Notes: a model not told the origin generated them from the letters alone. Shown: positions 2,955 to 15,078, numbered from the stretch's first letter. The stretch is DNA of 64,000 nucleotides from Planctomycetota bacterium (GCA_038213805.1 JBBQSO010000005.1:1-64000); one strand, 5' to 3'. Made by a program: numbers and translations.

Positions 2955-5153
2955 CTAAGGGTACAGCCGCGTGCCGATCTGGTAGACGAGCAATGCCCCA
3001 GCATAGGCCAGGGCGTTCATGTACACCAGCTGGAACAGTGGCCACCCCCACCCGCCGGTCTCGCGGCGGACCACCGCCAGGGTGCTCATGCACTGCATGG
3101 CGAGCACGAACCACACCAGCAGGCTGATCGCGACCACGGGCGTCCACACCGGCTTGCCGTCGGCGCGGCGGTCGGCCTTCAGGGCCTCGTGCAGCGGCAG
3201 CGCATCCTCCTCGACCTCGCCGACGCTGTAGACGATGCCCAGGGTGCTGACGAAGACCTCGCGCGCGGCGAAGGCGCCGACCAGGCCGACGCCGATCTTC
3301 CAGTCGAAGCCGAGGGGCGCGATGGCAGGTTCCATGAGGTGGCCGACGCGGCCGGCGACGCTGTGCTCGAGCTGGGCGCTGGCGATGGCGTGCGCGCTGG
3401 CCGACTGCGCGTCAGCCTCGGCCCGTTGGCGCTGCTCCGGCGTGGCGTCGGACGGCACCACGGCGGCGGGCTGCGCCTGGCGGATCGCGACGATACGCTC
3501 GTCCGACAGGCGTGGGAAATAGGCCAGCGCCCACAGCAGGATGCTCAGGCAGAAGATGGTGGTGCCGGCCTTGGTCAGGAACTTGCTCGTGTTGGTCCAC
3601 ACCTGGCGCGCCACCTCGCCGGCCTGCGGGATCTTGTAGCTGGGCATCTCGAGGATGAAGGGCGTGACCTCGCCACGGCCGAGGAAGCGCTTGCCGATCC
3701 AGGCGGTGGCCGCAGCGGCGACGATGCCGAGCGCGTAGCAGCCGAGCAGGATGCCACCCTGCACCAATGGCCCCTGCGCGGCGAAGAAGGTACCGATGAC
3801 CAGCGCGTAGACCGGCAGGCGCGCGCTGCACGACATGAACGGCGCGATCAAAATGGTGGCGAGGCGCTCGCGCCGGCTGTCGATGGTGCGCGTCGCCAGG
3901 ATTCCGGGAATGGCGCAGGCGAAGGATGACAGCAGCGGGATGAAGCTCTTGCCGTGCAGCCCGATCTTGGAGAGCAGGCGGTCCATCAGGAAGGCGGCGC
4001 GCGCCAGATAGCCGCTGTCCTCGAGCGCGGAGAGGAACAGGAAAAGGAGCGCGATCTGCGGGACGAACACCACCACGGAACCGACGCCTTTGATCACGCC
4101 GTCCGCGAGCAGCGAGCGCAGTGGTCCCTCCGCCAGGCCGCCGATGAGCAGCGCGCCGAGCCGGGTGATGCCGTCCTGCAGCGCGTCCATGATCGGCTTG
4201 GCCGCCCAGAAGATGGTGACGAAGAGGCTGGCCATGATCGCGGTGAAGATCACCAGGCCGGCGACGCGGTGCACCAGTACCGCGTCGACGCGCTCGGTGA
4301 GGCTGCGGCGACCCGCTTCGGGCGTGGCGGCCACGGTCGCGGCGACGAGCGCGTCGATCCAGTGGTAGCGCGCCTCGATGTCGGTCTGCACCACGTCGCG
4401 CCCGGCGAGGCGCCCGCGCGCGGCCGCGAGCGCGGCGGAGACACCGTCCAAGCCGCGGGATGCGGCGAGGTCCGCGCCATCCTCACCGGCCAACAGGCGC
4501 AGCGCGGTCGCTGTGGCGTTGGTTTCCGGTGCCGCGTCCGCGACCACTGCGGCGAGCGCCGCGACCTCAGCGGCCAGCGGATCGGGCAGCCGCCAAGCGG
4601 GTGCGGCCGGGCGGGTGGCCGAGATGATTGCCGCCTTCAGCGCGTCGAAGCCGCGGCGGCGGTGGCCGATCAGCGGCACCACGGCGATCCCCAGGCGCGC
4701 CGCCAGCGCGGCGGCGTCGACCGCCACGCCACGGCGCGCGGCGATATCAGTCATGTTCAGCGCCACCACCATGGGGTGGTCGAGCTCGATGAGCTGGCTG
4801 ACCAGGTAGAGGTTGCGCGCCAGGTTGCTGGCGTCGACCACTGCCACGATCACGTCGGGCAGGGGGGTGTCGGCGCGCAGGCCGCGCAGCACCTGCATCG
4901 CGACCACCTCATCCGGCGAGTGTGGGACCAGGCTGTAGGTGCCGGGCAGGTCGACGATGTCGACGACCCGGCCATCGGGCATCGGACAGCGACCGGTCTT
5001 CTTCTCGACGGTGATGCCCGGGTAGTTGGCGACCTTCTGGCGCAGGCCGGTCAGGCCGTTGAAGACCGTGGTCTTGCCGCTGTTGGGATTGCCGGCGAGG
5101 GCGACGGTCAGCGTGCCGGTGTTCAGCGACACGGGGGCGGCGGCGGCTGGCAT
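2955..5153 (-). CDS. feoB: Ferrous iron transport protein B
   Basis: GNPNSGKT, VANYPGITVE, DLPGTYSL, NMTD GTPase motifs; PFMSCSARLPVY membrane motif. Confidence 0.97.
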   Translation of the reverse strand: MPAAAAPVSLNTGTLTVALAGNPNSGKTTVFNGLTGLRQKVANYPGITVEKKTGRCPMPDGRVVDIVDLPGTYSLVPHSPDEVVAMQVLRGLRADTPLPDVIVAVVDASNLARNLYLVSQLIELDHPMVVALNMTDIAARRGVAVDAAALAARLGIAVVPLIGHRRRGFDALKAAIISATRPAAPAWRLPDPLAAEVAALAAVVADAAPETNATATALRLLAGEDGADLAASRGLDGVSAALAAARGRLAGRDVVQTDIEARYHWIDALVAATVAATPEAGRRSLTERVDAVLVHRVAGLVIFTAIMASLFVTIFWAAKPIMDALQDGITRLGALLIGGLAEGPLRSLLADGVIKGVGSVVVFVPQIALLFLFLSALEDSGYLARAAFLMDRLLSKIGLHGKSFIPLLSSFACAIPGILATRTIDSRRERLATILIAPFMSCSARLPVYALVIGTFFAAQGPLVQGGILLGCYALGIVAAAATAWIGKRFLGRGEVTPFILEMPSYKIPQAGEVARQVWTNTSKFLTKAGTTIFCLSILLWALAYFPRLSDERIVAIRQAQPAAVVPSDATPEQRQRAEADAQSASAHAIASAQLEHSVAGRVGHLMEPAIAPLGFDWKIGVGLVGAFAAREVFVSTLGIVYSVGEVEEDALPLHEALKADRRADGKPVWTPVVAISLLVWFVLAMQCMSTLAVVRRETGGWGWPLFQLVYMNALAYAGALLVYQIGTRLYP

Positions 5154-5169
5154 AGGGGGGTCCGTGCGC

Positions 5170-5445
5170 TTAGGCGCTGGCGCGCAGCGCGTCGCCGCCC
5201 AGCACCGCCACCAGGATCAGCGCAGCCTGGTCCCGGCGCAGGCTGAGCAGGTAGCCGCGCAGGCGCAGCTCCACCGGATCGCCGAGCGGCGCGCGGCGCA
5301 GCACCGCGACTTCCACTCCGGTGCACAGACCCATCTCGAGCAGGCGCCGACGGATGCCGTCCTCGCCCGCAACCGCCATCACCCGGCAGAGGCTGCCCGG
5401 TGCGAGGGTGGCGAGGGGGACCAGGGAAGGCAGGGGGGCGTTCAT
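5170..5445 (-). CDS. feoA: Ferrous iron transport protein A
   Basis: RRRLLEMGL, RRAPLGDPVELRLRGYLLSLRRDQA; upstream of feoB. Confidence 0.93.
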   Translation of the reverse strand: MNAPLPSLVPLATLAPGSLCRVMAVAGEDGIRRRLLEMGLCTGVEVAVLRRAPLGDPVELRLRGYLLSLRRDQAALILVAVLGGDALRASA

Positions 5446-5467
5446 GGACTGGTTGGGGAGTTTCCCA

Positions 5468-5490
5468 TAAATGAGAATGAATTGCAATTA
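5468..5490. promoter_or_regulatory. Putative Fur-type iron box upstream of feoAB
   Basis: AT-rich AAATGAGAATGAATTGCAATTA; the core TGAGAAT-G-AATTGCA resembles the Fur 7-1-7 repeat TGATAAT-N-ATTATCA, about 25 bp upstream of feoA. Confidence 0.65.
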
Positions 5491-5645
5491 GAAAGGGAGG
5501 CAGGTTGGGAACCGCGCTGAGTGCCAGACCCGCGAGTCCAGGTGTAGAGATCGATGCGGGACGGGTTCCGTGCGGGGCAGACCAATACTGGAAATCAGGT
5601 CCTAACACTTTGCAGAAAAGCAGGATACATCGCTGATCTCCGCGC

Positions 5646-6470
5646 TCAGCCCGGGCGCGAACGCATGAGCTCCACCAGCTCTGCATGCGCTTGCGGACCA
5701 GCAACCAGGAAGGGGGTCTTGCCGCCGGAGTAGTTGGTCAGGTCGAAGGGGAAGAGCTGGGAGCCGTCAGGCCGGGTGACCATGCCGCCAGCCTCCAGGA
5801 CGATGGCGGCAGCGGCGGCGATGTCCCACAGCTTGCAGTGGATGGTGATCGCGCCGTGGGCGATGCCGGCGGCTACGGTCACCGCCTCGAGCGCGGCGGA
5901 ACCGATGACGCGCACCTTCAGCCGGGTCTGGCCGTGGAAGGCGGACGCCCACGTGGGCAGGTGGCCATCCGCGTCGAGCAGGTTGCTGGTGAGCATGAGC
6001 ACGGCGCGCTCGCTGAGGGGTGTCGCCGGGGCGTGGAGCGCGACGTCGTCGCGCCATGCGCCGTGGCCTTGTTCGGCCGCGTAGGCCTGGTCGCGCACGA
6101 TGTCGTAGACCACGCCCAGCACCGGCTCGCCCCCGTCGAGCAGGCCGATGCAGACTGCGAAGTGGCTGAAGCCACTGACGAAGTTGTTGGTCCCGTCGAT
6201 CGGATCGATGACCCAGGTGCGATTCCCGGCGCGCGGGCGCTCGTGGGTGATGGCCGAGCCGTCGTCGTTCTCCTCGCCGATCACGCCGTCGTCGGGGAAG
6301 CGCGCGCGCAGCGCGGCGACGATGTGGCGCTGCACCGCGCGGTCGGCGACCGTCACGGCCTCCTCCCCGCGCTTGGTGAGGCGTTCGACGCTGCCGAAAT
6401 GCGCGCGGGCGATGGCGCCGGCGGCGCGTGCGAGGGCTATGGTGGCGGTGAGGGTCGCGGAGTTGGGCAT
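5646..6470 (-). CDS. Inositol monophosphatase family protein (SuhB-like)
   Basis: VTVAD, IGEE, WVIDPIDGTNNF, GSAAL, WDIAAA. Confidence 0.92.
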   Translation of the reverse strand: MPNSATLTATIALARAAGAIARAHFGSVERLTKRGEEAVTVADRAVQRHIVAALRARFPDDGVIGEENDDGSAITHERPRAGNRTWVIDPIDGTNNFVSGFSHFAVCIGLLDGGEPVLGVVYDIVRDQAYAAEQGHGAWRDDVALHAPATPLSERAVLMLTSNLLDADGHLPTWASAFHGQTRLKVRVIGSAALEAVTVAAGIAHGAITIHCKLWDIAAAAAIVLEAGGMVTRPDGSQLFPFDLTNYSGGKTPFLVAGPQAHAELVELMRSRPG

Positions 6471-6587
6471 GGGGGCTGGGTCGAGCGGGGGATGGAGGGG
6501 CGATGTGCGCAGGGCGAGCGGATCAGGGGTGATGGGGGAATGCAAGGGTCGGGGTGAGCGCGGCGCGTGCCCGAGGCTGGCCCGCGT

Positions 6588-7427
6588 CTAGAACGTCACG
6601 CCCAAAGCCATGGTCAGACTCGCGGCCGGCGCAGTGCTGCCATCGGCCTGCACGGCATTGGTCATGGCGTCGGCCTGAGCCGACAGCAGCAGGTGGTCGC
6701 TGAAGCGCCACGTGGTTTCGAGCGTGACGGCGGCCCCGCCGATCGTGCGACCTGCGGTGGTAGTGGTCTGGTGATCGATGGCCAGGGCGAACGACCAGGG
6801 ATCCTCCTGGACGGTGCGGGCCAGTGGGCCACCCGGCCAGCGCAGGCACAGCCCGACGCGGGCGCTGTGCGCCGTCTCCTCGCCATCGTAAGACGCGTGG
6901 ACGATGAGCAGCATGCCCTCGAAGTGGGTGATGGTCCCACGTTCGCTGCTGTGGCCGAGCTCGCCCCAGACGCCGATCGGTCCGCCGGCGAGGCTGCCGA
7001 GGAGGTTGCCACCCACCGCCGCTACGGCGCGGCCGGCGCGTTCGGCGAGCGGATCGGTGCCCGCGCGCAGATAGACGCCGCGGCGGAAGCAGGAAGGACC
7101 GAACATGCCCGCGTCCCAGCCATGCTGGGTCTCGGCGTAACCGAGCACGGCTTCGCCGTCGACCAGGCTCTCGCGGCGGGTGCGCACCACGCCGCCGGCC
7201 AGGCGCCGCGCCGGCGCGCCGAGCACCCAGCCCTGGAGGTACGGCGCGATGCGGTTTTCGACCAGCGGCAGGTGCTCATCCGCCACCAGCTGCTCATGGT
7301 CGGCGGTGAGCGGAGACCACGCCGCCAATGCGGCGGCGGGATCTGCTGCGCTGGCAGGCACCATGCAGGTCGCGCCAAGTGCTGCGGCGCAGGCCAGGGC
7401 CAGTCGGGGAGAGGCGGCGCGGCTCAT
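6588..7427 (-). CDS. Hypothetical secreted protein, possible outer-membrane beta-barrel
   Basis: N-terminal signal peptide, alternating beta-strand-like C-terminal half, terminal LTMALGVTF (C-terminal Phe); ATGA coupling with the upstream gene. Confidence 0.55.
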   Translation of the reverse strand: MSRAASPRLALACAAALGATCMVPASAADPAAALAAWSPLTADHEQLVADEHLPLVENRIAPYLQGWVLGAPARRLAGGVVRTRRESLVDGEAVLGYAETQHGWDAGMFGPSCFRRGVYLRAGTDPLAERAGRAVAAVGGNLLGSLAGGPIGVWGELGHSSERGTITHFEGMLLIVHASYDGEETAHSARVGLCLRWPGGPLARTVQEDPWSFALAIDHQTTTTAGRTIGGAAVTLETTWRFSDHLLLSAQADAMTNAVQADGSTAPAASLTMALGVTF

Positions 7428-8491
7428 GGTGATCCGGCGAGACCAGCGAGCCAGGCACGGCCGCCGCCCGCGAGCCAGGCCCCGGCCTCGACCATTCCGC
7501 GCGCATCGGGAACGGTCGGCAGCGCCGCGGCCCCCGGCACCGCGCAGCTGCGCAGCAGTGCAGCGCTGGTGGCCGAAATAAGCACAGATCCGGATTCAGC
7601 CGTAGCGAGCGCGGCGAGTTCGCGGAGCGCCGACTCCTCGGCCAAGGCGCGGCGGTAGGCGCCGTCGAGAAGTTGCGGATCGGTGCCGAGACGCAGCAGG
7701 GGATCGACCAGGGTGTAGGGATCGGCATGGGTGGCCGAGGCCTGGATGAGGACGCGCGTGGCCACTGCCAGGAGCACCGGCTCCAGCAGTTTCGGAATGC
7801 AGCGTGCCAGCCCGGCGCGCAGCCGTCCGTCCAGACGCGCGCGGTCGAGCGGCGTGCGCGTCAGGTGTAGGAATAAGTGGATCGCGGCCGGTTCGTCGAC
7901 CTGCGCCGGCAATGAGTGGTGATTCCGGAAGAGTGGTGTGGCGGTTGCGGTCGGTTGCTCAGGCCCATGGCGGAGCAGCTCGCAGTACGCGCTCTCCGCC
8001 GCCTCGCCCTGCAGCTGCGCGGGCAGGGCCGATTCCGGCAGCACCTGCCAGCCGCGCGCCGGTCCGGCGTCCGGAGCGAGGAGGTGGAGCACGCGTAGCG
8101 CCTCCCAGGGATAGTCCCAGGTCGGCACCTGCTCGTGGGTGCGGAAATCGCTGTGCTGCTCGATGCGCACCCACCAGCCGTGCGCGGACCAGCGCACCAC
8201 GGCGAGGTTGTCGTGCAGGGAGCCGAGCAGTTCGTCGGGGCGCGTGCTCTCGGCCACCGTCCAACCGAGCACCTGCAGCGCCAGACGGGCACGCGCGGCC
8301 GGATGCTCGCCGGGTGCCATCTCCAGGCGCTGTCCGCCACCCGTCAGCCAGGGACCGGAGGCAGGTGACGGCGAAGGCGGACGTGGTGCGCGCGTGCCCG
8401 GTCCCAGGAAGCACGCGGGAAACACTGCGAAGCCGAGGACGGCGCAAACGCCAGTCAACACGGAGAGGAGCCGTGGACTGCTGGGTCTCAA
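7424..8491 (-). CDS. Hypothetical protein, probable lipoprotein
   Basis: TTG at 8491 overlaps the upstream stop (TTGA), giving MRPSSPRLLSVLTGVCAVLGFAVFPAC: basic N-region, hydrophobic core, lipobox-like PAC. Confidence 0.55.
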   Translation of the reverse strand: MRPSSPRLLSVLTGVCAVLGFAVFPACFLGPGTRAPRPPSPSPASGPWLTGGGQRLEMAPGEHPAARARLALQVLGWTVAESTRPDELLGSLHDNLAVVRWSAHGWWVRIEQHSDFRTHEQVPTWDYPWEALRVLHLLAPDAGPARGWQVLPESALPAQLQGEAAESAYCELLRHGPEQPTATATPLFRNHHSLPAQVDEPAAIHLFLHLTRTPLDRARLDGRLRAGLARCIPKLLEPVLLAVATRVLIQASATHADPYTLVDPLLRLGTDPQLLDGAYRRALAEESALRELAALATAESGSVLISATSAALLRSCAVPGAAALPTVPDARGMVEAGAWLAGGGRAWLAGLAGSP

Positions 8492-8688
8492 TGGAAGCCG
8501 CCGGAACCTGAGAACACCATCACGTAGCACGTGCCGATGCCGAAGGCGAGGAGTCCAAGCAGCACGATGACAATCCACAGGATCACCTTGCCCACCGTGG
8601 AGACCTTGCCGAGCTGCCCGGCCAGGGCGATGGCTCCGGCCAGGGCCGCGAGGGCGATGAGGCCAGGAATAAGCAGTGCGAAAATCAT
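8488..8688 (-). CDS. Small two-TM membrane protein (66 aa) with LLAFGIGTC motif
   Basis: Two hydrophobic helices separated by QLGKVSTVGK, single Cys after the second helix; follows an AT-rich promoter-like tract. Confidence 0.7.
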   Translation of the reverse strand: MIFALLIPGLIALAALAGAIALAGQLGKVSTVGKVILWIVIVLLGLLAFGIGTCYVMVFSGSGGFH

Positions 8689-8694
8689 GGAGCT

Positions 8695-8740
8695 GACATC
8701 ATACAATTAGTTATCAAATGTAAATATACACTTGCCACGC
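8695..8740. promoter_or_regulatory. AT-rich divergent promoter region
   Basis: ATACAATTAGTTATCAAATGTAAATATACACTTG between divergent genes in a very GC-rich background. Confidence 0.5.
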
Positions 8741-8765
8741 GTCCCCGCCGGACATGGTCGGGCGC

Positions 8766-10196
8766 ATGATCGACCGCATCCGACCCTACCTCTTCTATGG
8801 TGCAACCCAGGCGCTGTGCGCAACCTGCCTGCGCGTGGTGCAGGCCAAGGAGATCATCGAGGACGGTTGCGTGTATCTGCTCAAGCGCTGCCCCGAGCAT
8901 GGGCCGGAGCGCGTGCTCATTGCCGACGACGCCGCCTATTGGCGGCTGGGTCGCGAGCGTTTCCTGAAGCCACCCGAGCAGGTGGTGAAGCCCAACACCG
9001 CGCACAAATACGGGTGCCCCTACGATTGCGGCATCTGCCCCGAGCACGAGCAGCACGGCTGCCTGACCCTGCTCGAGATCACCGACCATTGCAACCTGCG
9101 CTGCCCGACCTGCTACGCGGGCAGCGGGCCCGAGCGGCAGACCCATCGCTCCCTTGCCCAGCTCGAGCGCATGCTCGACCGCATCGTCGCCAACGAGGTC
9201 GAGCCGGACATCGTGCAGATCTCCGGCGGCGAGCCCACCACCCACCCGGAATTCTTCGCCGTCCTCGACGCCTGCCGGCGCAGGCCGATCCGCCACCTGA
9301 TGTTGAACACCAACGGCATCCGCATCGCGAACGAGGCGGGCTTTGCGGAGCGCCTCGCCGCCTACATGCCGCGCTTCGAGATCTACCTGCAATTCGACAG
9401 CCTGCGCGAGACGCCGCTGCGCACCCTGCGCGGCGCCGACCTGCGCGGCATCCGCCAGGCGGCGCTGGCGAAGCTCAACGCCCTCAACCTCTCGACCACC
9501 TTGGTGGTGACGGTGCGGCGCGGGCTGAACGACGGCGAATTGGGGGAGATCCTGGAGTTCGCCCTGCAGCAGCGCTGCGTGCGCGGCGTGACCTTCCAGC
9601 CCGTGCAGGACGCCGGCCGCAACGACGGCTTCGATCCCGCCCAGCACCGCCTGACCTTAACCGAGGTGCGTCGACGCATCCTCGAGCAGTCGCAGGTGTT
9701 CCGCGCCGAGGACCTCATCCCGGTGCCATGCCATCCCGACTGCCTGGCGATGGCCTACGCGCTCAAGCGCGGCGGCACGGTGACCCCGCTCACCGGGATG
9801 ATCGATCCGCAGGTGCTGATCGATGGCGGTCGCAACACCATCGTCTACGAGGCCGATGCCGCCATCCGCCAGGAACTGTTCAAGGCCTTCAGCACCAATC
9901 ACAGCCCGCACTCGGCGGCCGGCGCGTTGCACCGTCTGCTGTGCTGCCTGCCGGGCGTGGGCGCCGCGCTGGGCGCGGCGCTGCCCAGCTACGACCAGGT
10001 GTTCCGCGTGATCATCATGCAGTTCCTCGATCGCCACAGCCTCGACCTGCGCAGCGTGCGCAAGACCTGCGTGCACATCGCGCATCCGGACGGCAAGCGC
10101 GTCATCCCCTTCGACACCTACAACCTGTTCTATCGCGACGATCTCGAGCAACGGGTACTGGCGCCGCTGCGTGCCGCTACGCTCGCGCCGGTTTGA
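8766..10196 (+). CDS. Radical SAM protein, MJ0619/Tes (tetraether lipid synthase, GDGT-MAS)-like family
   Basis: CATC...KRCPEHG, GCPYDCGICPEH, CNLRCPTC, SGGEPT, NTNG, IYLQFD, VRGVTFQPV..GR, CVHIAHPDG..IPFDTYN; start 8754 or 8766. Confidence 0.88.
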   Translation: MIDRIRPYLFYGATQALCATCLRVVQAKEIIEDGCVYLLKRCPEHGPERVLIADDAAYWRLGRERFLKPPEQVVKPNTAHKYGCPYDCGICPEHEQHGCLTLLEITDHCNLRCPTCYAGSGPERQTHRSLAQLERMLDRIVANEVEPDIVQISGGEPTTHPEFFAVLDACRRRPIRHLMLNTNGIRIANEAGFAERLAAYMPRFEIYLQFDSLRETPLRTLRGADLRGIRQAALAKLNALNLSTTLVVTVRRGLNDGELGEILEFALQQRCVRGVTFQPVQDAGRNDGFDPAQHRLTLTEVRRRILEQSQVFRAEDLIPVPCHPDCLAMAYALKRGGTVTPLTGMIDPQVLIDGGRNTIVYEADAAIRQELFKAFSTNHSPHSAAGALHRLLCCLPGVGAALGAALPSYDQVFRVIIMQFLDRHSLDLRSVRKTCVHIAHPDGKRVIPFDTYNLFYRDDLEQRVLAPLRAATLAPV

Positions 10197-10954
10197 GCTA
10201 CCAGGCGTGGGTTCTGATCGGCATGGCAGGTGCGGCGCTGGCCGCGCGCCTGCAGCGCGATGAGCGGCCCGAGCTGCGCCCGCAGCGCACCATGCTCACG
10301 CTCGTGGCGGTGCTCGGTGCGGTGGCGGGCGCCTTCCTCGGCGAACTGCCTGCGGATGCGTTCGGCTGGGCATGGCGGCCGCCATTGACCCCCGCCGACG
10401 CCTTGCCCCTTGGCGGGCGCACGGTGCTGGGCGGGCTGATCGGCGGCTGGCTGGCGGTCGAGGCGCTGAAGTGGCGCCTGGGCATCCGCGGATCGACCGG
10501 CGATGGCTTCGCCCTGCCGCTGGCGATCGCGCTCACCGCCGGACGGCTGGGCTGCGCCAGCGCCGGGTGCTGCGCGGGACAGATATGCGACGCGGGGGCG
10601 TGGTATCTGCCATTCTCCGCGCATGACGTCCTCGGTCAGCCGCGCATCCCGGTGCCGGCCATCGAAGTCGCTTTCCACGCCAGTGTGGCGGTTCTGCTGA
10701 TCGTGGCTGCGCGATGTGGCTGGTGGTGCGGACGGCGCCTCGCCGCCTACCTGACGGCGTATGCGGTGCTACGCTTCCTGCTCGAGTTCCTGCGCGACAA
10801 TCCGCCGTTGCCGGGGCTGACCATCACCTGGTACCAGGTGCTGGCGCTGGGGCTGCTCGCATTGGCGGGCAGCACGTGGTACCGGCGTGCACGCGCTGCG
10901 CGGCAGGCCGACGCAGCCGGCCCTGAGCCCATGCCGGCTGCGCGCGAACCGTAG
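10193..10954 (+). CDS. Prolipoprotein diacylglyceryl transferase (Lgt)-like membrane protein
   Basis: Multi-TM; GGRTVLGGLIGG, GDGFALP, GRLGCASAGCCAG, YAVLRFLLEFLR; TTGA coupling to the radical SAM stop. Confidence 0.8.
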   Translation: MSYQAWVLIGMAGAALAARLQRDERPELRPQRTMLTLVAVLGAVAGAFLGELPADAFGWAWRPPLTPADALPLGGRTVLGGLIGGWLAVEALKWRLGIRGSTGDGFALPLAIALTAGRLGCASAGCCAGQICDAGAWYLPFSAHDVLGQPRIPVPAIEVAFHASVAVLLIVAARCGWWCGRRLAAYLTAYAVLRFLLEFLRDNPPLPGLTITWYQVLALGLLALAGSTWYRRARAARQADAAGPEPMPAAREP

Positions 10955-10959
10955 CGGCG

Positions 10960-13941
10960 TCAGCGCCCCAGCATGCCCTTCAGGAACTGCCCCGTGTAGC
11001 TGGCCTTGACCTTGGCGACCTGCTCGGGCGTGCCGGTGGCGATCAGCTGGCCGCCGCGGTGGCCGCCCTCCGGACCCAGGTCGATGATCCAGTCGGCGGT
11101 CTTGATGATGTCCAGGTTGTGCTCGATCACGACCACGGTGTTGCCGGCATCGACCAGGCGTGCGAGCACGTCGAGGAGCTTGCGCACGTCCTCGAAGTGC
11201 AGGCCGGTCGACGGTTCGTCGAGGATATACAGGGTGTTGCCGGTGTCGCGTTTGGCGAGTTCGCGCGACAGCTTGATGCGCTGCGCCTCGCCGCCTGACA
11301 GCGTGGTCGCGGGCTGGCCGAGACGGATGTAGTCCAGGCCGACGTCGACCATGGTCTGCATCACGCGCACCACCGGCACGTGCACACCGAAGTGCTGGAT
11401 GGCCTCGCGTACCGAGAAGCCGAGCACGTCGGCGATGGTCTTGTGCTTGTAGGCGACGCGCAGGGTTTGCTCGTTGAAGCGCTTGCCGTGGCAGACCTCG
11501 CAGGGCACGTAGACATCGGCGAGAAAGTGCATCTCGACCTTCTTGACGCCGTCGCCCTCGCAGGCCTCGCAGCGTCCGCCCTTGACGTTGAAGCTGAAGC
11601 GCGAGGGGGTGTAGCCGTAGAGCTTCGACTCGCGGGTCTCGGCGAAGATGTTGCGGATGTGGTCCCACAGCTTGGTGTAGGTCGCCGGGTTGGAACGCGG
11701 CGTGCGGCCGATCGGCTGTTGGTCGATGGCGATGACCTTGTCGAGGTGCTGCAGGCCGCTGATCTTGTCGTGGTCGCCGACTTCTTCGACACCGTCGTTG
11801 AAGTGGTTGTTCAGCGCCGGGTACAAAATGTGGTTGAGAAACGACGACTTGCCCGCGCCGCTGACCCCGGTGATGCAGGTCAGGGTGCCGAGCGGGATCT
11901 CGATGGTGAGGTCCTTGAGGTTGTTGGCGCGCGCGCCTTGAACCGCAACCATCTTGCCGTTGCCGATGCGGCGCTTGGCGGGCACCGGGATGCTGCGCCG
12001 CCCCGACAGGTAGTCGCCGGTGATCGAGCCCTTGGCGTCGATCACACCCGCGACCGGGCCGCTGTAGACCACCGTGCCGCCCAGTTCGCCCGCGCCGGGC
12101 CCGAAGTCGACGACGTGGTCGCCGGCGCGGATGGTGTCTTCATCGTGTTCGACGACCAGCACGGTGTTGCCGATGTCGCGTAGGTGCTTGAGAGTCTCGA
12201 TCAGGCGGGTGTTGTCGCGCTGGTGCAGGCCGATGGAGGGTTCATCGAGCACGTAGAGCACGCCGGTCAGCTCTGAGCCGATCTGGCTGGCCAAGCGGAT
12301 GCGCTGCGCCTCGCCGCCCGACAGGGTCGGGCCGCTGCGGTCGAGGGTCAGATAGTCGAGCCCGACGTTGATCAGGAAGCGCAGGCGCGCCTGGACCTCC
12401 TTGAGCACGCCGCTGGCGACCTTGGCCGCGCTGGTGCCGAGCTTGAGTGCGGCGAAGAAGGCGCTGGCCTCGCCGATGGTCAGGGCGCAGACCTCGGGCA
12501 GCGAGCGTTCGCCGATGTGCACCGCGGTCGAGGTCGACTTGATGCGCTTGCCGCCGCAGTCTGTGCACTGCGTCGAGCTGAAGTACTGGCCGAGCTTGTC
12601 GCGCCGCCAATCGCTGTCCGACTCCTTCATGGTGCGTTCGAGCCACGGCACCACGCCGTCGAACTTGGTATTGAACGTCCCCTGGCTGTTGGTTGTCGCC
12701 CAGTTGACCGCGACGCGCTCGCTGGTGCCGAACAGCACCAGCTGCCGTTTGGCCTCGGGCAGCTTCTTCCACGGCACATCGAGGTCGATCTTGAGCTTGT
12801 CGAGCAGGTCGCGGCGGTATTCGATGTGCCAGGCCTGGCGGTCCCCATCGCCGAGTTCGCCCCATGCCGCGACCGCGCCATCGTTGATCGACAGTTCGGG
12901 GACGATGAGCTTGCCGAGGTCGACGGTGGTCTTATTGCCAAGACCGTTACAGCCGCCGCAGGCGCCGAGCGGCGAGTTGAACGAGAAGCTGTTCGGCTCA
13001 AGGTCGGGGAAGCTCAGGTCGCAGTGGTGGCAGTAGAGGTGCTCTGAGAAGAATAAGTCCGCACGACCGTCCGGAAGTCCGGAAGTCCGGAAGTCCGGAA
13101 GTTCTGCTGCACCGACGACCGGGCCCGGTGTCACCACCGTCACCGGTTTCCCGGCCGTCGACTTCCGGACTTCCGGACTTCCGGACTTCCGGACCTGCTC
13201 GGCGCCCTGAGCGTCAGCGAAGGCGACGAGCATCTTGCCCTCGCCCTCGCGTAGTGCGGTCTCGACGCTGTCGGCGAGGCGCGCGCGCACGCCGTCCTTG
13301 ACCACGATGCGGTCGACGACGATGTCGATGCGGTGCTTGACCTTCTTGTTCAGGTCGAGCTGATGCGGCTGGTCGAGCAGGATTTCCTTGCCGTCGACGC
13401 GCACGCGCGTGAAGCCGGCCTTTTTCGCGCGGTCGAGGACGTCCTGGTGCTCGCCCTTGCGGTCGCTGACCTTCGGCGCGAGCAGCAGCAGCCGGCTGTC
13501 TGCGGGCAGATTGAGGATGGCGTCGACGATCTCGTCTTGGCTGCGCTTGCCGACCTCGCGGCCGCAGCTGTGGCAATGCTGGATGCCGATGCGCGCCCAC
13601 AGCACGCGCAGATAGTCGAGGATCTCGGTGATGGTGCCGACGGTCGAGCGCGGATTTTTCGATGCGGACTTCTGCTCGATGGCGATGGTCGGCGACAGGC
13701 CGCGGATCGATTCGTACTTCGGTTTCTCGAGCTGGCCGAGGAACTGACGCGCGTAGGCGGACAGCGACTCGACGTAGCGGCGCTGGCCTTCGGCGTAGAT
13801 GGTGTCGAAGGCCATCGAGGACTTGCCGCTGCCGGATGGACCGGTGAACACCACCAGCGCGCGCTTGGGCAGGTCGAGATCGACGTTCTTGAGGTTGTGT
13901 TCCTGGGCGCCGCGCACGGAGATGGTCTGGAGTTCGCTCAT
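10960..13941 (-). CDS. uvrA: Excinuclease ABC subunit A, with a 42-aa repeat-derived insertion
   Basis: GAQEHNLKNV, GPSGSGKSS, two LSGGEAQRI signatures, zinc fingers, DLGPEGG. Confidence 0.98.
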   Translation of the reverse strand: MSELQTISVRGAQEHNLKNVDLDLPKRALVVFTGPSGSGKSSMAFDTIYAEGQRRYVESLSAYARQFLGQLEKPKYESIRGLSPTIAIEQKSASKNPRSTVGTITEILDYLRVLWARIGIQHCHSCGREVGKRSQDEIVDAILNLPADSRLLLLAPKVSDRKGEHQDVLDRAKKAGFTRVRVDGKEILLDQPHQLDLNKKVKHRIDIVVDRIVVKDGVRARLADSVETALREGEGKMLVAFADAQGAEQVRKSGSPEVRKSTAGKPVTVVTPGPVVGAAELPDFRTSGLPDGRADLFFSEHLYCHHCDLSFPDLEPNSFSFNSPLGACGGCNGLGNKTTVDLGKLIVPELSINDGAVAAWGELGDGDRQAWHIEYRRDLLDKLKIDLDVPWKKLPEAKRQLVLFGTSERVAVNWATTNSQGTFNTKFDGVVPWLERTMKESDSDWRRDKLGQYFSSTQCTDCGGKRIKSTSTAVHIGERSLPEVCALTIGEASAFFAALKLGTSAAKVASGVLKEVQARLRFLINVGLDYLTLDRSGPTLSGGEAQRIRLASQIGSELTGVLYVLDEPSIGLHQRDNTRLIETLKHLRDIGNTVLVVEHDEDTIRAGDHVVDFGPGAGELGGTVVYSGPVAGVIDAKGSITGDYLSGRRSIPVPAKRRIGNGKMVAVQGARANNLKDLTIEIPLGTLTCITGVSGAGKSSFLNHILYPALNNHFNDGVEEVGDHDKISGLQHLDKVIAIDQQPIGRTPRSNPATYTKLWDHIRNIFAETRESKLYGYTPSRFSFNVKGGRCEACEGDGVKKVEMHFLADVYVPCEVCHGKRFNEQTLRVAYKHKTIADVLGFSVREAIQHFGVHVPVVRVMQTMVDVGLDYIRLGQPATTLSGGEAQRIKLSRELAKRDTGNTLYILDEPSTGLHFEDVRKLLDVLARLVDAGNTVVVIEHNLDIIKTADWIIDLGPEGGHRGGQLIATGTPEQVAKVKASYTGQFLKGMLGR
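13069..13194. repeat. Inverted octamer-array element in frame within uvrA
   Basis: (GTCCGGAA)x4+GT at 13069-13102 and its exact reverse complement at 13161-13194; 58-bp spacer; 126 bp total, 42 codons. Confidence 0.95.
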
Positions 13942-14124
13942 GGGCGCGGATGATCGGGGCCATCTGGACCCATGAAACGGGAAAAGCGGACCGGCGCGCC
14001 GATATCCCGTAAAAAATGAGTTTTCCTTGGTAAAATCGCGGCATCCGTACGCCGAACCTTGGTTCTGCCGGGGCTCGCCCTGGCCTCGGATCGACATGGT
14101 TGCCGCGGTGCGTAGCCTCCCCCC

Positions 14125-15078
14125 GTGCCCAAGCCCCTCCTGGTCATCGGTTCGGTCCATGCCGAACTCGCCTTCGAGCTCGCCCGCCTGCCGCGGGGCG
14201 GGGAGACCGTCGCCGCCCTGGCCGGTGTAACGCGGCCGGGCGGGCGGGGGGCGCTGCAGGCGATGGCGGCGGTACGCCTCGGCCAACAGACGTGGTTCGC
14301 AGGCAACCTCGGCGACGACGCGCACGCTCCCGGTCTGCGAGAAGCCCTGACCGCGGCCGGGCTTGGGCTCGAGCTGCTCCATCAGGTCGAGGGTCCGAGC
14401 GGTCAGGCGGTGGTGCTGGTCCAGGCGGACGGCCTGAAGGCGTGCGTCGTCCACCCGGGGGCCAATCTGGAATGGTACGGGCCGCGCGGCGCCAACCGTG
14501 CGTGGAATGGCCTGAGCGAACCGCTCGCCAGTCGCATCGCTGAGGCGGGCGTGCTGCTCCTCGACCGCGAGATCCCAGACGAGGTCAATGGCGAGGCCAG
14601 CGGCCTAGCCCGCCATGCGGGCGTACCAGTGGTGCTCGATGCCGGTGGGACGGATCGCGCGCTGCCGGCGTCGTTGCTCGCGCGGATCGAGGTGCTCGTC
14701 ACCAGCCAGGGTGAGCTTGCGCGCCTCAGCGGCCAGCGCACCGAGAGCCATGAGCAGGTGTTGACCGCCGTCCAGGTCCTGCAGCGCCAAGGCGCGGTGG
14801 CGGTGCTGGTCAAGCTCGGCGCGCGCGGCGCCGTGCTGGTGGAACGCAATGGCGCGGTGCTGCGCCAAGCCGCCTTCCAGGTTCCGGTGATCGATGTCAC
14901 CGGCGCGGGCGACTGCTTCAGCGCGGCCTATGCGGTCGCGCTGCTCGAAGGCAGCACGGCGGCCCAGCGGCTGCGTTTTGCCTGCGCCGCCGGGGCGCTG
15001 TGCGTACAGACCAAGGGGACGCTGCCGAGCATGCCGGCGCGGCGCGCGCTGGAGAAGTTCCTGGCGAACGCGGGTTGA
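14125..15078 (+). CDS. PfkB family carbohydrate kinase, ribokinase-like
   Basis: RLPRGGETV, PGGRGA, LVKLGARGA, IDVTGAGDCF; GTG start. Confidence 0.88.
   Translation: MPKPLLVIGSVHAELAFELARLPRGGETVAALAGVTRPGGRGALQAMAAVRLGQQTWFAGNLGDDAHAPGLREALTAAGLGLELLHQVEGPSGQAVVLVQADGLKACVVHPGANLEWYGPRGANRAWNGLSEPLASRIAEAGVLLLDREIPDEVNGEASGLARHAGVPVVLDAGGTDRALPASLLARIEVLVTSQGELARLSGQRTESHEQVLTAVQVLQRQGAVAVLVKLGARGAVLVERNGAVLRQAAFQVPVIDVTGAGDCFSAAYAVALLEGSTAAQRLRFACAAGALCVQTKGTLPSMPARRALEKFLANAG

Follow-up and report, generated by a model that had tools for sequence, protein, structure and literature searches.

What does an enzyme of the radical S-adenosylmethionine (SAM) type with the fold of the archaeal lipid-coupling enzyme Tes do in a planctomycete, and why does its gene run into one for a relative of Lgt, which transfers diacylglyceryl to cysteines? 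The question is posed by positions 6,588–10,954 of a 64,000-nucleotide stretch of DNA from a Planctomycetota bacterium (GCA_038213805.1, JBBQSO010000005.1:1–64000); 'the window' below means this whole stretch, the G+C content of which is ∼70%. A radical SAM gene and an Lgt-like gene run rightward from a short spacer, and genes for a small two-transmembrane Cys peptide, a putative lipoprotein and a predicted outer-membrane β-barrel run leftward from it. A sequence-only reading of the window had proposed that the Lgt-like protein lipidates a Cys of the peptide or of the lipoprotein and that the radical SAM enzyme cross-links, cyclizes or otherwise modifies the acyl chains. We find that the radical SAM enzyme, the Lgt-like protein and a small Cys membrane protein form a real, conserved and apparently undescribed module, and that this locus is a rearranged variant of it with clade-specific envelope partners.

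The radical SAM and Lgt-like genes are linked across phyla

A scan of one genome per species gave 560 relatives of the radical SAM protein, and the best 80 were analysed together with 6-kb flanks. The homologues in these 80 loci are 55–98% identical and belong to Planctomycetota, Myxococcota, Verrucomicrobiota, Acidobacteriota, Gemmatimonadota, Bacteroidota (Aureispira) and Bacillota, the last contributing many loci (Paenibacillus, Neobacillus, Brevibacillus). As judged by tblastn, an Lgt-like gene adjoins the radical SAM gene in 71 of the 80, and contig ends truncate several of the remaining nine. This adjacency is far beyond chance, and the pairing on which the sequence-only reading was built is conserved across phyla.

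All-against-all clustering of the flanks brought out only one further recurrent gene, which lies directly downstream of the radical SAM gene and encodes a small membrane protein with two to three transmembrane helices and a Cys ∼4–15 residues from the C-terminus; no protease or exporter conserved with the module emerged from the clustering of the 80 loci. A profile made from 30 of these proteins matches 52 of the 80 loci. A rule blind to sequence, which asks for architecture only (a C-terminal transmembrane helix with a Cys, and a basic loop before the helix), gave 62 matches in the 106 kb beside the pair as against 18 in 550 kb of far flanks, an enrichment of ∼18-fold. With all detection methods joined, a small Cys protein is found in 67 of the 80 loci, and the view that such a peptide is a recurrent partner holds up well.

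The usual gene order is Lgt-like, radical SAM, small Cys protein. At this locus and in ten relatives the Lgt-like gene instead lies downstream of the radical SAM gene. In a FastTree phylogeny of the radical SAM proteins, rooted on a 37%-identical homologue, the loci with the downstream arrangement form one clade, within which a Sandaracinaceae/Polyangiales group with the usual order is nested. The small proteins are distributed accordingly: a divergently transcribed two-transmembrane peptide of the GIG[STCA]C type, or a close variant of it, occurs in eight of the 10 Lgt-downstream loci and in none of the other 70, while the downstream-type small protein, as detected by its profile, occurs in none of those 10 and in 52 of the 70. 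Architecture, position and this complementary distribution are the grounds on which we treat the two types as equivalent.

The radical SAM enzyme is built on a Tes scaffold

Every motif that had suggested membership of the MJ0619 family (CxxC, CPEHG, GCPYDCGxC, CxxxCxxC, IYLQFD, FQPV and PFDTYN) is present in the translation. Membership is also confirmed at the level of the fold. The Methanocaldococcus jannaschii enzyme Tes (GDGT-MAS, MJ0619; 7TOL and 7TOM) is the only solved relative by sequence, with 7TOL matched at E=2e-61 in a sequence search and 9.5e-84 in a profile search. An AlphaFold (AF2) model built on 30 homologues, with a predicted local distance difference test (pLDDT) score of 81.7 and low confidence at residues 359–409, aligns with 7TOM/7TOL over its full length (∼500 columns) at a Foldseek template-modelling (TM) score of 0.76–0.77, so that the four-domain fold is common to both; the next fold, MoaA, scores 0.36.

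Among NCBIfam models the best match is TrsS (NF045646), a radical SAM (seleno)protein family, which is matched end to end at 302 bits, below its cut-off of 490, and for which the accessible part of PMC13188914 describes no function. The Tes model (NF045702) gives 246.2 bits, below its cut-off of 450. Two other radical SAM proteins of the bacterial family likewise stay below both cut-offs, at 284 and 304 bits for Tes and 320–348 bits for TrsS.

Metal ligands were mapped through the residue numbering of Lloyd 2022 and a profile alignment to 7TOL, and conservation was read from an alignment of 30 members. Three sites of Tes are intact, and all their ligands are invariant in the 30. The rubredoxin-like site (C9-x2-C12...C33-x2-H36 in Tes) corresponds to C22, C25, C46 and H49, the N-terminal cluster (C73/C77/C80 plus His) to C88, C92 and C95 with H98/H101, and the CX3CX2C radical SAM cluster to C113, C117 and C120. 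The fourth, C-terminal site differs. In Tes it is a [4Fe-4S] cluster with a labile ligand, Met439 (Lloyd 2022), and its other ligands were assigned here from the proximity of cysteines to that Met. The Met position is kept in 22 of the 30 bacterial sequences, only one of the Cys positions is kept, and the family has an invariant set of its own: C326, H327, C330 (29 of 30), M333, C397, C398 and C103. As read from these alignments, the enzyme has a Tes scaffold with three of four metal sites kept and a rewired C-terminal auxiliary site, and for this reason should not be filed as Tes. It differs from Tes in its setting too, being partnered with an Lgt-like gene in hosts whose lipids are built of fatty acids and not of phytanyl chains.

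Two labels were considered and rejected. That of a true Tes or branched glycerol dialkyl glycerol tetraether (brGDGT) synthase fails on the NCBIfam score and on the changes at the C-cluster positions and at Tyr459, described below. A defence function fails because PADLOC returned only generic viperin-core matches to the radical SAM domain.

More distant relatives were seen in other genomes. In L106 (G039:C115, 5543–6445), from another planctomycete, a radical SAM gene of 37% identity has an Lgt-like gene directly downstream, and the N-terminus encoded at 5543–6445 carries five tandem copies of the 8-residue unit EEWKSGRV. L107 (G054:C30) and L108 (G048:C229) hold Tes-fold radical SAM paralogues of 28–32% identity, in tandem pairs with no Lgt-like neighbour, the pair of L107 sitting among further large open reading frames (ORFs); these paralogues probably belong to another subfamily.

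The Lgt-like protein is a third Lgt paralogue

The Lgt-like protein matches Pfam LGT (PF01790) at 64.3 bits (gathering cut-off 24.9) over profile positions 14–234 of 240. Against TIGR00544 it reaches 29 bits where the equivalog cut-off is 118.9, and the label of a housekeeping Lgt was rejected on this ground. A housekeeping lgt of the Escherichia coli type is found on contig 66 of the same genome (187 bits for the Pfam model, 192.1 for TIGR00544). The genome has three Lgt-family genes in all, so the one at this locus is a dedicated extra paralogue, as the sequence-only reading had supposed, and the objection that it might be the only lgt of the cell is excluded. The remaining copy, a second divergent paralogue, lies on contig 62 (L002, G000:C62, 1327–2361), encodes 344 residues with the motif GRLGCFFNGCCFG, and scores 172 bits with Pfam and 105 bits with TIGR00544, just below the cut-off; the Lgt-like protein of our locus is 29% identical to it.

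Among 29 sequences of the Lgt-like family the invariant residues are G117, R118, G120, C121 ... R194, together with the family-specific E90, K93 and G103-D104. A 13-residue motif has been defined for Lgt (Y26 H103 G104 G142 R143 G145 N146 E151 G154 Y235 R239 E243 R246; 10.1101/2025.03.27.645668). Mapped by eye, from motif spacing and an alignment to the contig-62 paralogue that left Y26 without a placeable equivalent, eight of the 13 are kept, both essential arginines included: G142, R143, G145, G154, Y235, R239, E243 and R246, which are G117, R118, G120, G129, Y190, R194, E198 and R201 in the Lgt-like protein. G80 probably belongs to the set as well. From the signature motif to the transmembrane helix that follows there are ∼23 residues, compared with ∼52 in the genome's own Lgt, which indicates a much reduced periplasmic head domain. 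The additional cysteines of the protein (GCC, IC) were considered as a special site and rejected, being unconserved in the family; nor are they special to this locus, since the contig-62 paralogue has the same GCxxxGCC pattern.

A phmmer comparison of the Lgt-like protein with PDB sequences returned nothing at E ≤ 0.01; the entries for E. coli Lgt are 5AZB and 5AZC. Prediction of a complex between the Lgt-like protein (29-row alignment) and the small peptide (10-row alignment) gave scores of 0.00 and 0.00. No fusion of the two enzymes came to light: L056 and L068 have long ORFs spanning both genes with no LGT domain in the radical SAM frame, and among proteins of 841–2400 residues nine long homologues were found, of which seven contain an intein (three of these carry an archaeal label), one has an AMP-binding domain and one has no additional domain annotated. 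For a fusion of ∼740 residues the relevant length range is the 'near' one, covered here for the best 120 of its 8000 matches.

The small peptide is constrained at its cysteine

The peptide of this locus carries its GIGxC motif near the end of the second transmembrane helix, and G58 and C60 are invariant in an alignment of 10 relatives. It has no match in Pfam, NCBIfam or PADLOC. When 61 relatives of the genome were searched with a profile of the peptide, eight matched, each on the contig of the radical SAM gene and within ∼1.1 kb of it. The radical SAM gene is present in 16 of the 61, and none of the 45 relatives that lack it gave a match. Four of the eight matched genomes are themselves represented in the profile; G003, G012 and G025 are independent of it. 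A ninth radical SAM-bearing genome of the family, G017 (L097), was missed by the profile and at the corresponding position encodes two tandem two-transmembrane proteins, each having a C-terminal Cys (1559–1810 and 1860–2120). Two copies were also seen in L011, at 5181–5291 and 5844–6041.

Compared with the near-identical relative L007, the peptide gene is locally hypervariable: 8488–8706 and L007 1969–2172 encode peptides of 53% identity, with a synonymous divergence (dS) of 0.91, while in the same comparison the radical SAM proteins are 98% identical with a dS of 0.27, and dS for the radical SAM and barrel genes lies at 0.24–0.27. The GIGTCYVMVF core is almost unchanged between the two peptides, and the spacer at 8707–8753 is nearly identical despite the divergence of the adjacent peptide gene. 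Recombination, or a diversifying turnover of the first transmembrane helix and the loop, may possibly account for this pattern. The ratio of non-synonymous to synonymous divergence (dN/dS) is 0.39 for the peptide, 0.25 for the lipoprotein, 0.24 for the barrel and 0.05 for the radical SAM gene, and the lipoprotein and barrel genes evolve faster than the radical SAM/Lgt-like pair. We conclude that the peptide gene is real and is constrained mainly at its Cys motif.

A lipoprotein and a β-barrel are added in one planctomycete family

The leader of the putative lipoprotein has a basic n-region and a hydrophobic h-region followed by V-F-P-A-C, where L008 has V-F-A-N-C. For the lipobox consensus a Pro at −2 is unusual, and so is an Asn at −1. 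Pfam and NCBIfam searches with this protein gave no match, and none of its Atlas neighbours lies above 0.78. The region of signal peptide and lipobox follows the peptide gene in L007, L008, L009, G025 (L101) and G003 (L105), while the 295-residue C-terminal domain was found in L007 and G003 only.

The 279-residue protein encoded next is predicted to be an outer-membrane β-barrel. It too has no match in Pfam or NCBIfam. Its model, of low confidence (pLDDT 52), is all-β from residue ∼92 with 10–11 long strands; all 44 Foldseek matches listed are outer-membrane β-barrels, at TM scores of ≤0.27, and its language-model neighbours are porins (0.93–0.94). The relatives end in Phe, or Trp in one case. 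Homologues lie beside the radical SAM gene in G010/L007, G003 and G013/L024, with a weaker one in G014/L009, and G017/L097 has an outer-membrane-protein-like ORF of different sequence that ends in Phe; within the clade the barrel was not found in L008, L010 or L011. In L105 (G003:C31, 1–9000), from the same genus, the radical SAM gene is in three pieces with four in-frame TGA codons and the barrel gene is broken up, its parts lying ∼2.1 kb from each other, while synteny with the inositol-monophosphatase-family gene is kept; this locus looks decayed or badly assembled.

The sequence-only reading had counted both proteins as parts of the system. That description fits one planctomycete family; in the other phyla neither was found, and the two are accordingly a family-level addition rather than part of a universal core.

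A model for the module and its alternatives

Three matters are observed: the linkage of the three genes, the catalytic arginines that the Lgt-like protein retains, and the Tes scaffold of the radical SAM enzyme, on which three metal sites are intact. To account for them, we tentatively favour an explanation to which we would give somewhat less than an even chance, namely that the Lgt-like protein lipidates the Cys of the small peptide and that the radical SAM enzyme modifies the lipid tail by radical chemistry. The core is a conserved three-part membrane module in which the Lgt-like protein is a dedicated membrane transferase of the Lgt family. The only conserved feature of the microprotein is a Cys that lies towards the outer end of the last transmembrane helix, after a basic loop; to this Cys a diacylglyceryl-type lipid would be moved from a phospholipid. 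Before or after the transfer, the radical SAM enzyme would take hydrogen from a carbon of the lipid tail and make a C–C or C–S bond, giving a microprotein with an unusual lipid that might be cross-linked, cyclized or membrane-spanning.

The basic loop and the last helix of the microprotein resemble the n- and h-regions found in lipoprotein signal peptides, the Cys standing where the helix meets the outer leaflet, which makes an Lgt paralogue the natural candidate for its lipidation. The radical SAM enzyme is highly conserved across phyla, whereas the microprotein keeps only its Cys, and this suggests that the enzyme acts on an invariant lipid and not on the peptide. Formation of a bond on that lipid is proposed by analogy with Tes, which binds whole phospholipids, those of bacteria included (Lloyd 2022). 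The coupling to a lipoprotein and a barrel suggests in addition an outer-envelope connection for the product of this planctomycete family. A bolder form of the same idea, which we think unlikely, is a new protein–lipid conjugate: the Lgt paralogue would load phospholipid-derived diacylglycerol on the buried Cys, and the radical SAM enzyme, derived from Tes and with its auxiliary cluster rewired, would weld the tails together or to an opposite-leaflet lipid, producing a macrocyclic or membrane-spanning anchor that in this family would be passed to the lipoprotein/barrel pair.

Several observations weigh against lipidation of the peptide followed or preceded by tail modification. The chemistry of the module is argued from homology alone. 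The Lgt-like protein has Cys (C121) in place of the essential N146, Cys (C126) in place of E151 and Leu (L79) in place of H103. Such N146C/E151C variants occur in distant Lgts, and MSMEG_5408, the second Lgt homologue of Mycobacterium smegmatis, which shares the N146C change, is presumed to have low Lgt activity (10.1101/2025.03.27.645668). In the radical SAM enzyme, the Tes cysteines 438, 455 and 470 are replaced by Ile, Ser/Thr and Asp, with Cys retained in all 30 family members only at the position of C456; Tyr459, conserved in 1000 archaeal Tes homologues (Lloyd 2022), is Ile in all 30. With the C-terminal ligands and Tyr459 replaced, coupling of tails in the manner of Tes cannot be assumed. 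There is also a question of topology: the active site of Lgt faces the outer leaflet and radical SAM enzymes are cytoplasmic, which leaves their access to a shared lipid unexplained. The canonical lipobox, [LVI][ASTVI][GAS]C, follows the n- and h-regions of a signal peptide; the I-G-T-C of our peptide instead stands at an internal transmembrane end, and elsewhere the residues before the Cys are very variable, unlike those of a lipobox. Thirteen of the 80 loci have no small Cys protein by any method. Nor could homology between the peptide of this locus and the downstream-type small protein be shown from sequence: the peptide scores −2.7 bits against the downstream-type profile, with an hhalign probability of 12.6% over 17 columns around the Cys. 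Finally, the 70 loci that lie outside the clade yielded neither the lipoprotein nor the barrel.

One alternative is that only free lipids are involved, the radical SAM enzyme modifying phospholipid tails by cyclization, tail-to-tail coupling or branching, the Lgt-like protein binding, presenting or re-esterifying the lipid, and the microprotein serving a structural or regulatory role with its Cys unlipidated. Both Tes and Mss (below) act on free lipids, and Tes was crystallized with an E. coli phospholipid (Lloyd 2022). The far better conservation of the radical SAM enzyme than of the microprotein, the 13 loci without a detectable microprotein and the absence of N146, E151 and H103 from the Lgt-like protein all fit. 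A single invariant Cys at a constant depth of the last helix is nevertheless hard to reconcile with a mere scaffold, and the Lgt family is known only for Cys S-diacylglyceryl transferases. The module is moreover found in Paenibacillus, relatives of Bacillus and others that are not known for membrane-spanning lipids, and Tes homologues do not track the producers of iso-diabolic acid, occurring in only three of 14 acidobacteria that make it (Sahonero-Canavesi 2022). We regard this explanation as rather unlikely. If, on the other hand, all five genes of our locus formed one envelope machine, the Lgt-like protein would lipidate the lipoprotein, at its unusual FPAC box, either alongside the peptide or in its place, and the barrel would receive or export the product. 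The TTGA and ATGA overlaps do join the peptide, lipoprotein and barrel genes, parts of the set recur beside the radical SAM gene in G010, G003, G013, G014, G025 and G017 in differing orders, and the lipobox has Pro or Asn at positions where the consensus makes them unusual. Against this stand the absence of both proteins from those same 70 loci, the restriction of the lipoprotein C-terminal domain to L007 and G003, the failure to find the barrel in L008, L010 and L011, and the faster evolution of both genes than of the pair. We regard a five-gene machine as improbable.

Least probable, in our estimation highly so, is a lipopeptide made in the manner of a RiPP, a peptide that the ribosome synthesizes and that is modified after translation, for which the last transmembrane helix would be an internal lipoprotein signal, signal peptidase II would cut before the lipidated Cys and the radical SAM enzyme would tailor the released C-terminal peptide, 13 residues long at this locus. 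Nearly all members do show a basic loop, a hydrophobic stretch and a Cys followed by 4–15 residues; the peptide gene is hypervariable, with the excess of dS over the radical SAM and barrel genes given above, and L011 and G017 have two copies each. The tail after the Cys is, however, short, hydrophobic and unconserved, no protease or exporter recurs with the module in the clustered flanks, and the enzyme resembles the lipid-acting Tes (Foldseek TM score 0.77) and not the peptide-acting SPASM maturases (0.35–0.37).

The preferred explanation, lipidation of the microprotein Cys combined with radical modification of the lipid tail, may be set beside what is known of bacterial relatives of Tes. Hundreds of bacterial Tes homologues that lack a known role were noted in both Tes papers of 2022: some of their hosts are not known for biphytanyl chains (Lloyd 2022), and from 456 bacterial homologues a role in brGDGT synthesis was proposed (Zeng 2022). 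For Mss of Thermotoga and Thermoanaerobacter, also a radical SAM enzyme, coupling of lipid tails by a mechanism of the Tes type has been proposed, and Mss is only remotely related to Tes; the accessible part of its description mentions no Lgt-like partner (Sahonero-Canavesi 2022). The accessible text of a review from 2026 on radical SAM enzymes that modify lipids does not mention Lgt. The sequence-only reading knew of no characterized function for the bacterial pairing, and a full-text literature search, which lay outside the supplements of the Tes papers (such as the similarity network of Lloyd 2022), likewise found no published account of it and no function. Partnership with an Lgt paralogue and a one-Cys microprotein provides a concrete, testable context for the orphan bacterial Tes homologues, and a possible role for the puzzling second Lgt homologues of the N146C type. 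Were a new lipid anchor or cross-linked lipid indeed the product, lipoprotein biogenesis and the lipid chemistry of radical SAM enzymes would both be extended; were it the protein–lipid conjugate, the widespread bacterial Tes homologues would have the function that has long been sought for them. The rearranged variant, with its outer-envelope proteins, could hint at the site where the product acts.

Layout and setting of the locus

All five ORFs of the sequence-only reading are present at the positions it gave (Table 1), and the two units diverge, as described, from one spacer that is AT-rich at its left end. The translational couplings are likewise in place: the TTG start of the Lgt-like gene overlaps the stop of the radical SAM gene as TTGA (10193–10196), the TTG start of the lipoprotein gene lies in a TTGA overlap with the peptide gene (8491–8488), and the start of the barrel gene lies in an ATGA overlap with the lipoprotein gene at 7427.

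Table 1. Coordinates of the module and its immediate surroundings in the window.
Feature	Coordinates	Strand	Remarks
Inositol-monophosphatase-family gene	5646–6545	−	Left flank of the module
Predicted outer-membrane β-barrel	6588–7427	−	279 residues; signal peptide, C-terminal Phe (...GVTF)
Putative lipoprotein	7424–8491	−	355 residues; signal peptide ...GFAVFPAC, Pro-rich linker, C-terminal domain
Two-transmembrane Cys peptide	8488–8706	−	72 residues from TTG, 66 from ATG at 8688; GIGTC
Spacer	8707–8753		47 bp, first ∼30 bases AT-rich; presumed shared promoter region
Radical SAM enzyme of Tes/GDGT-MAS fold, Lgt-partnered bacterial subfamily	8754–10196	+	480 residues; Pfam Radical_SAM and Zn_ribbon_HMPTM
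Lgt-family paralogue, N146C/E151C type, short head	10193–10954	+	253 residues; Pfam LGT; TTG start
uvrA	10960–14454	−	Right flank; labelled by eye

A scan of 6400–11200 gave no σ70 promoter and no terminator, a result in which the consensus says little for a planctomycete. The module sits between the inositol-monophosphatase-family gene and uvrA. Further to the left, large minus-strand ORFs in 2955–5487 were labelled feoB and feoA by eye. The link of the feoB, feoA and uvrA flanks to the module is conserved only in close relatives.

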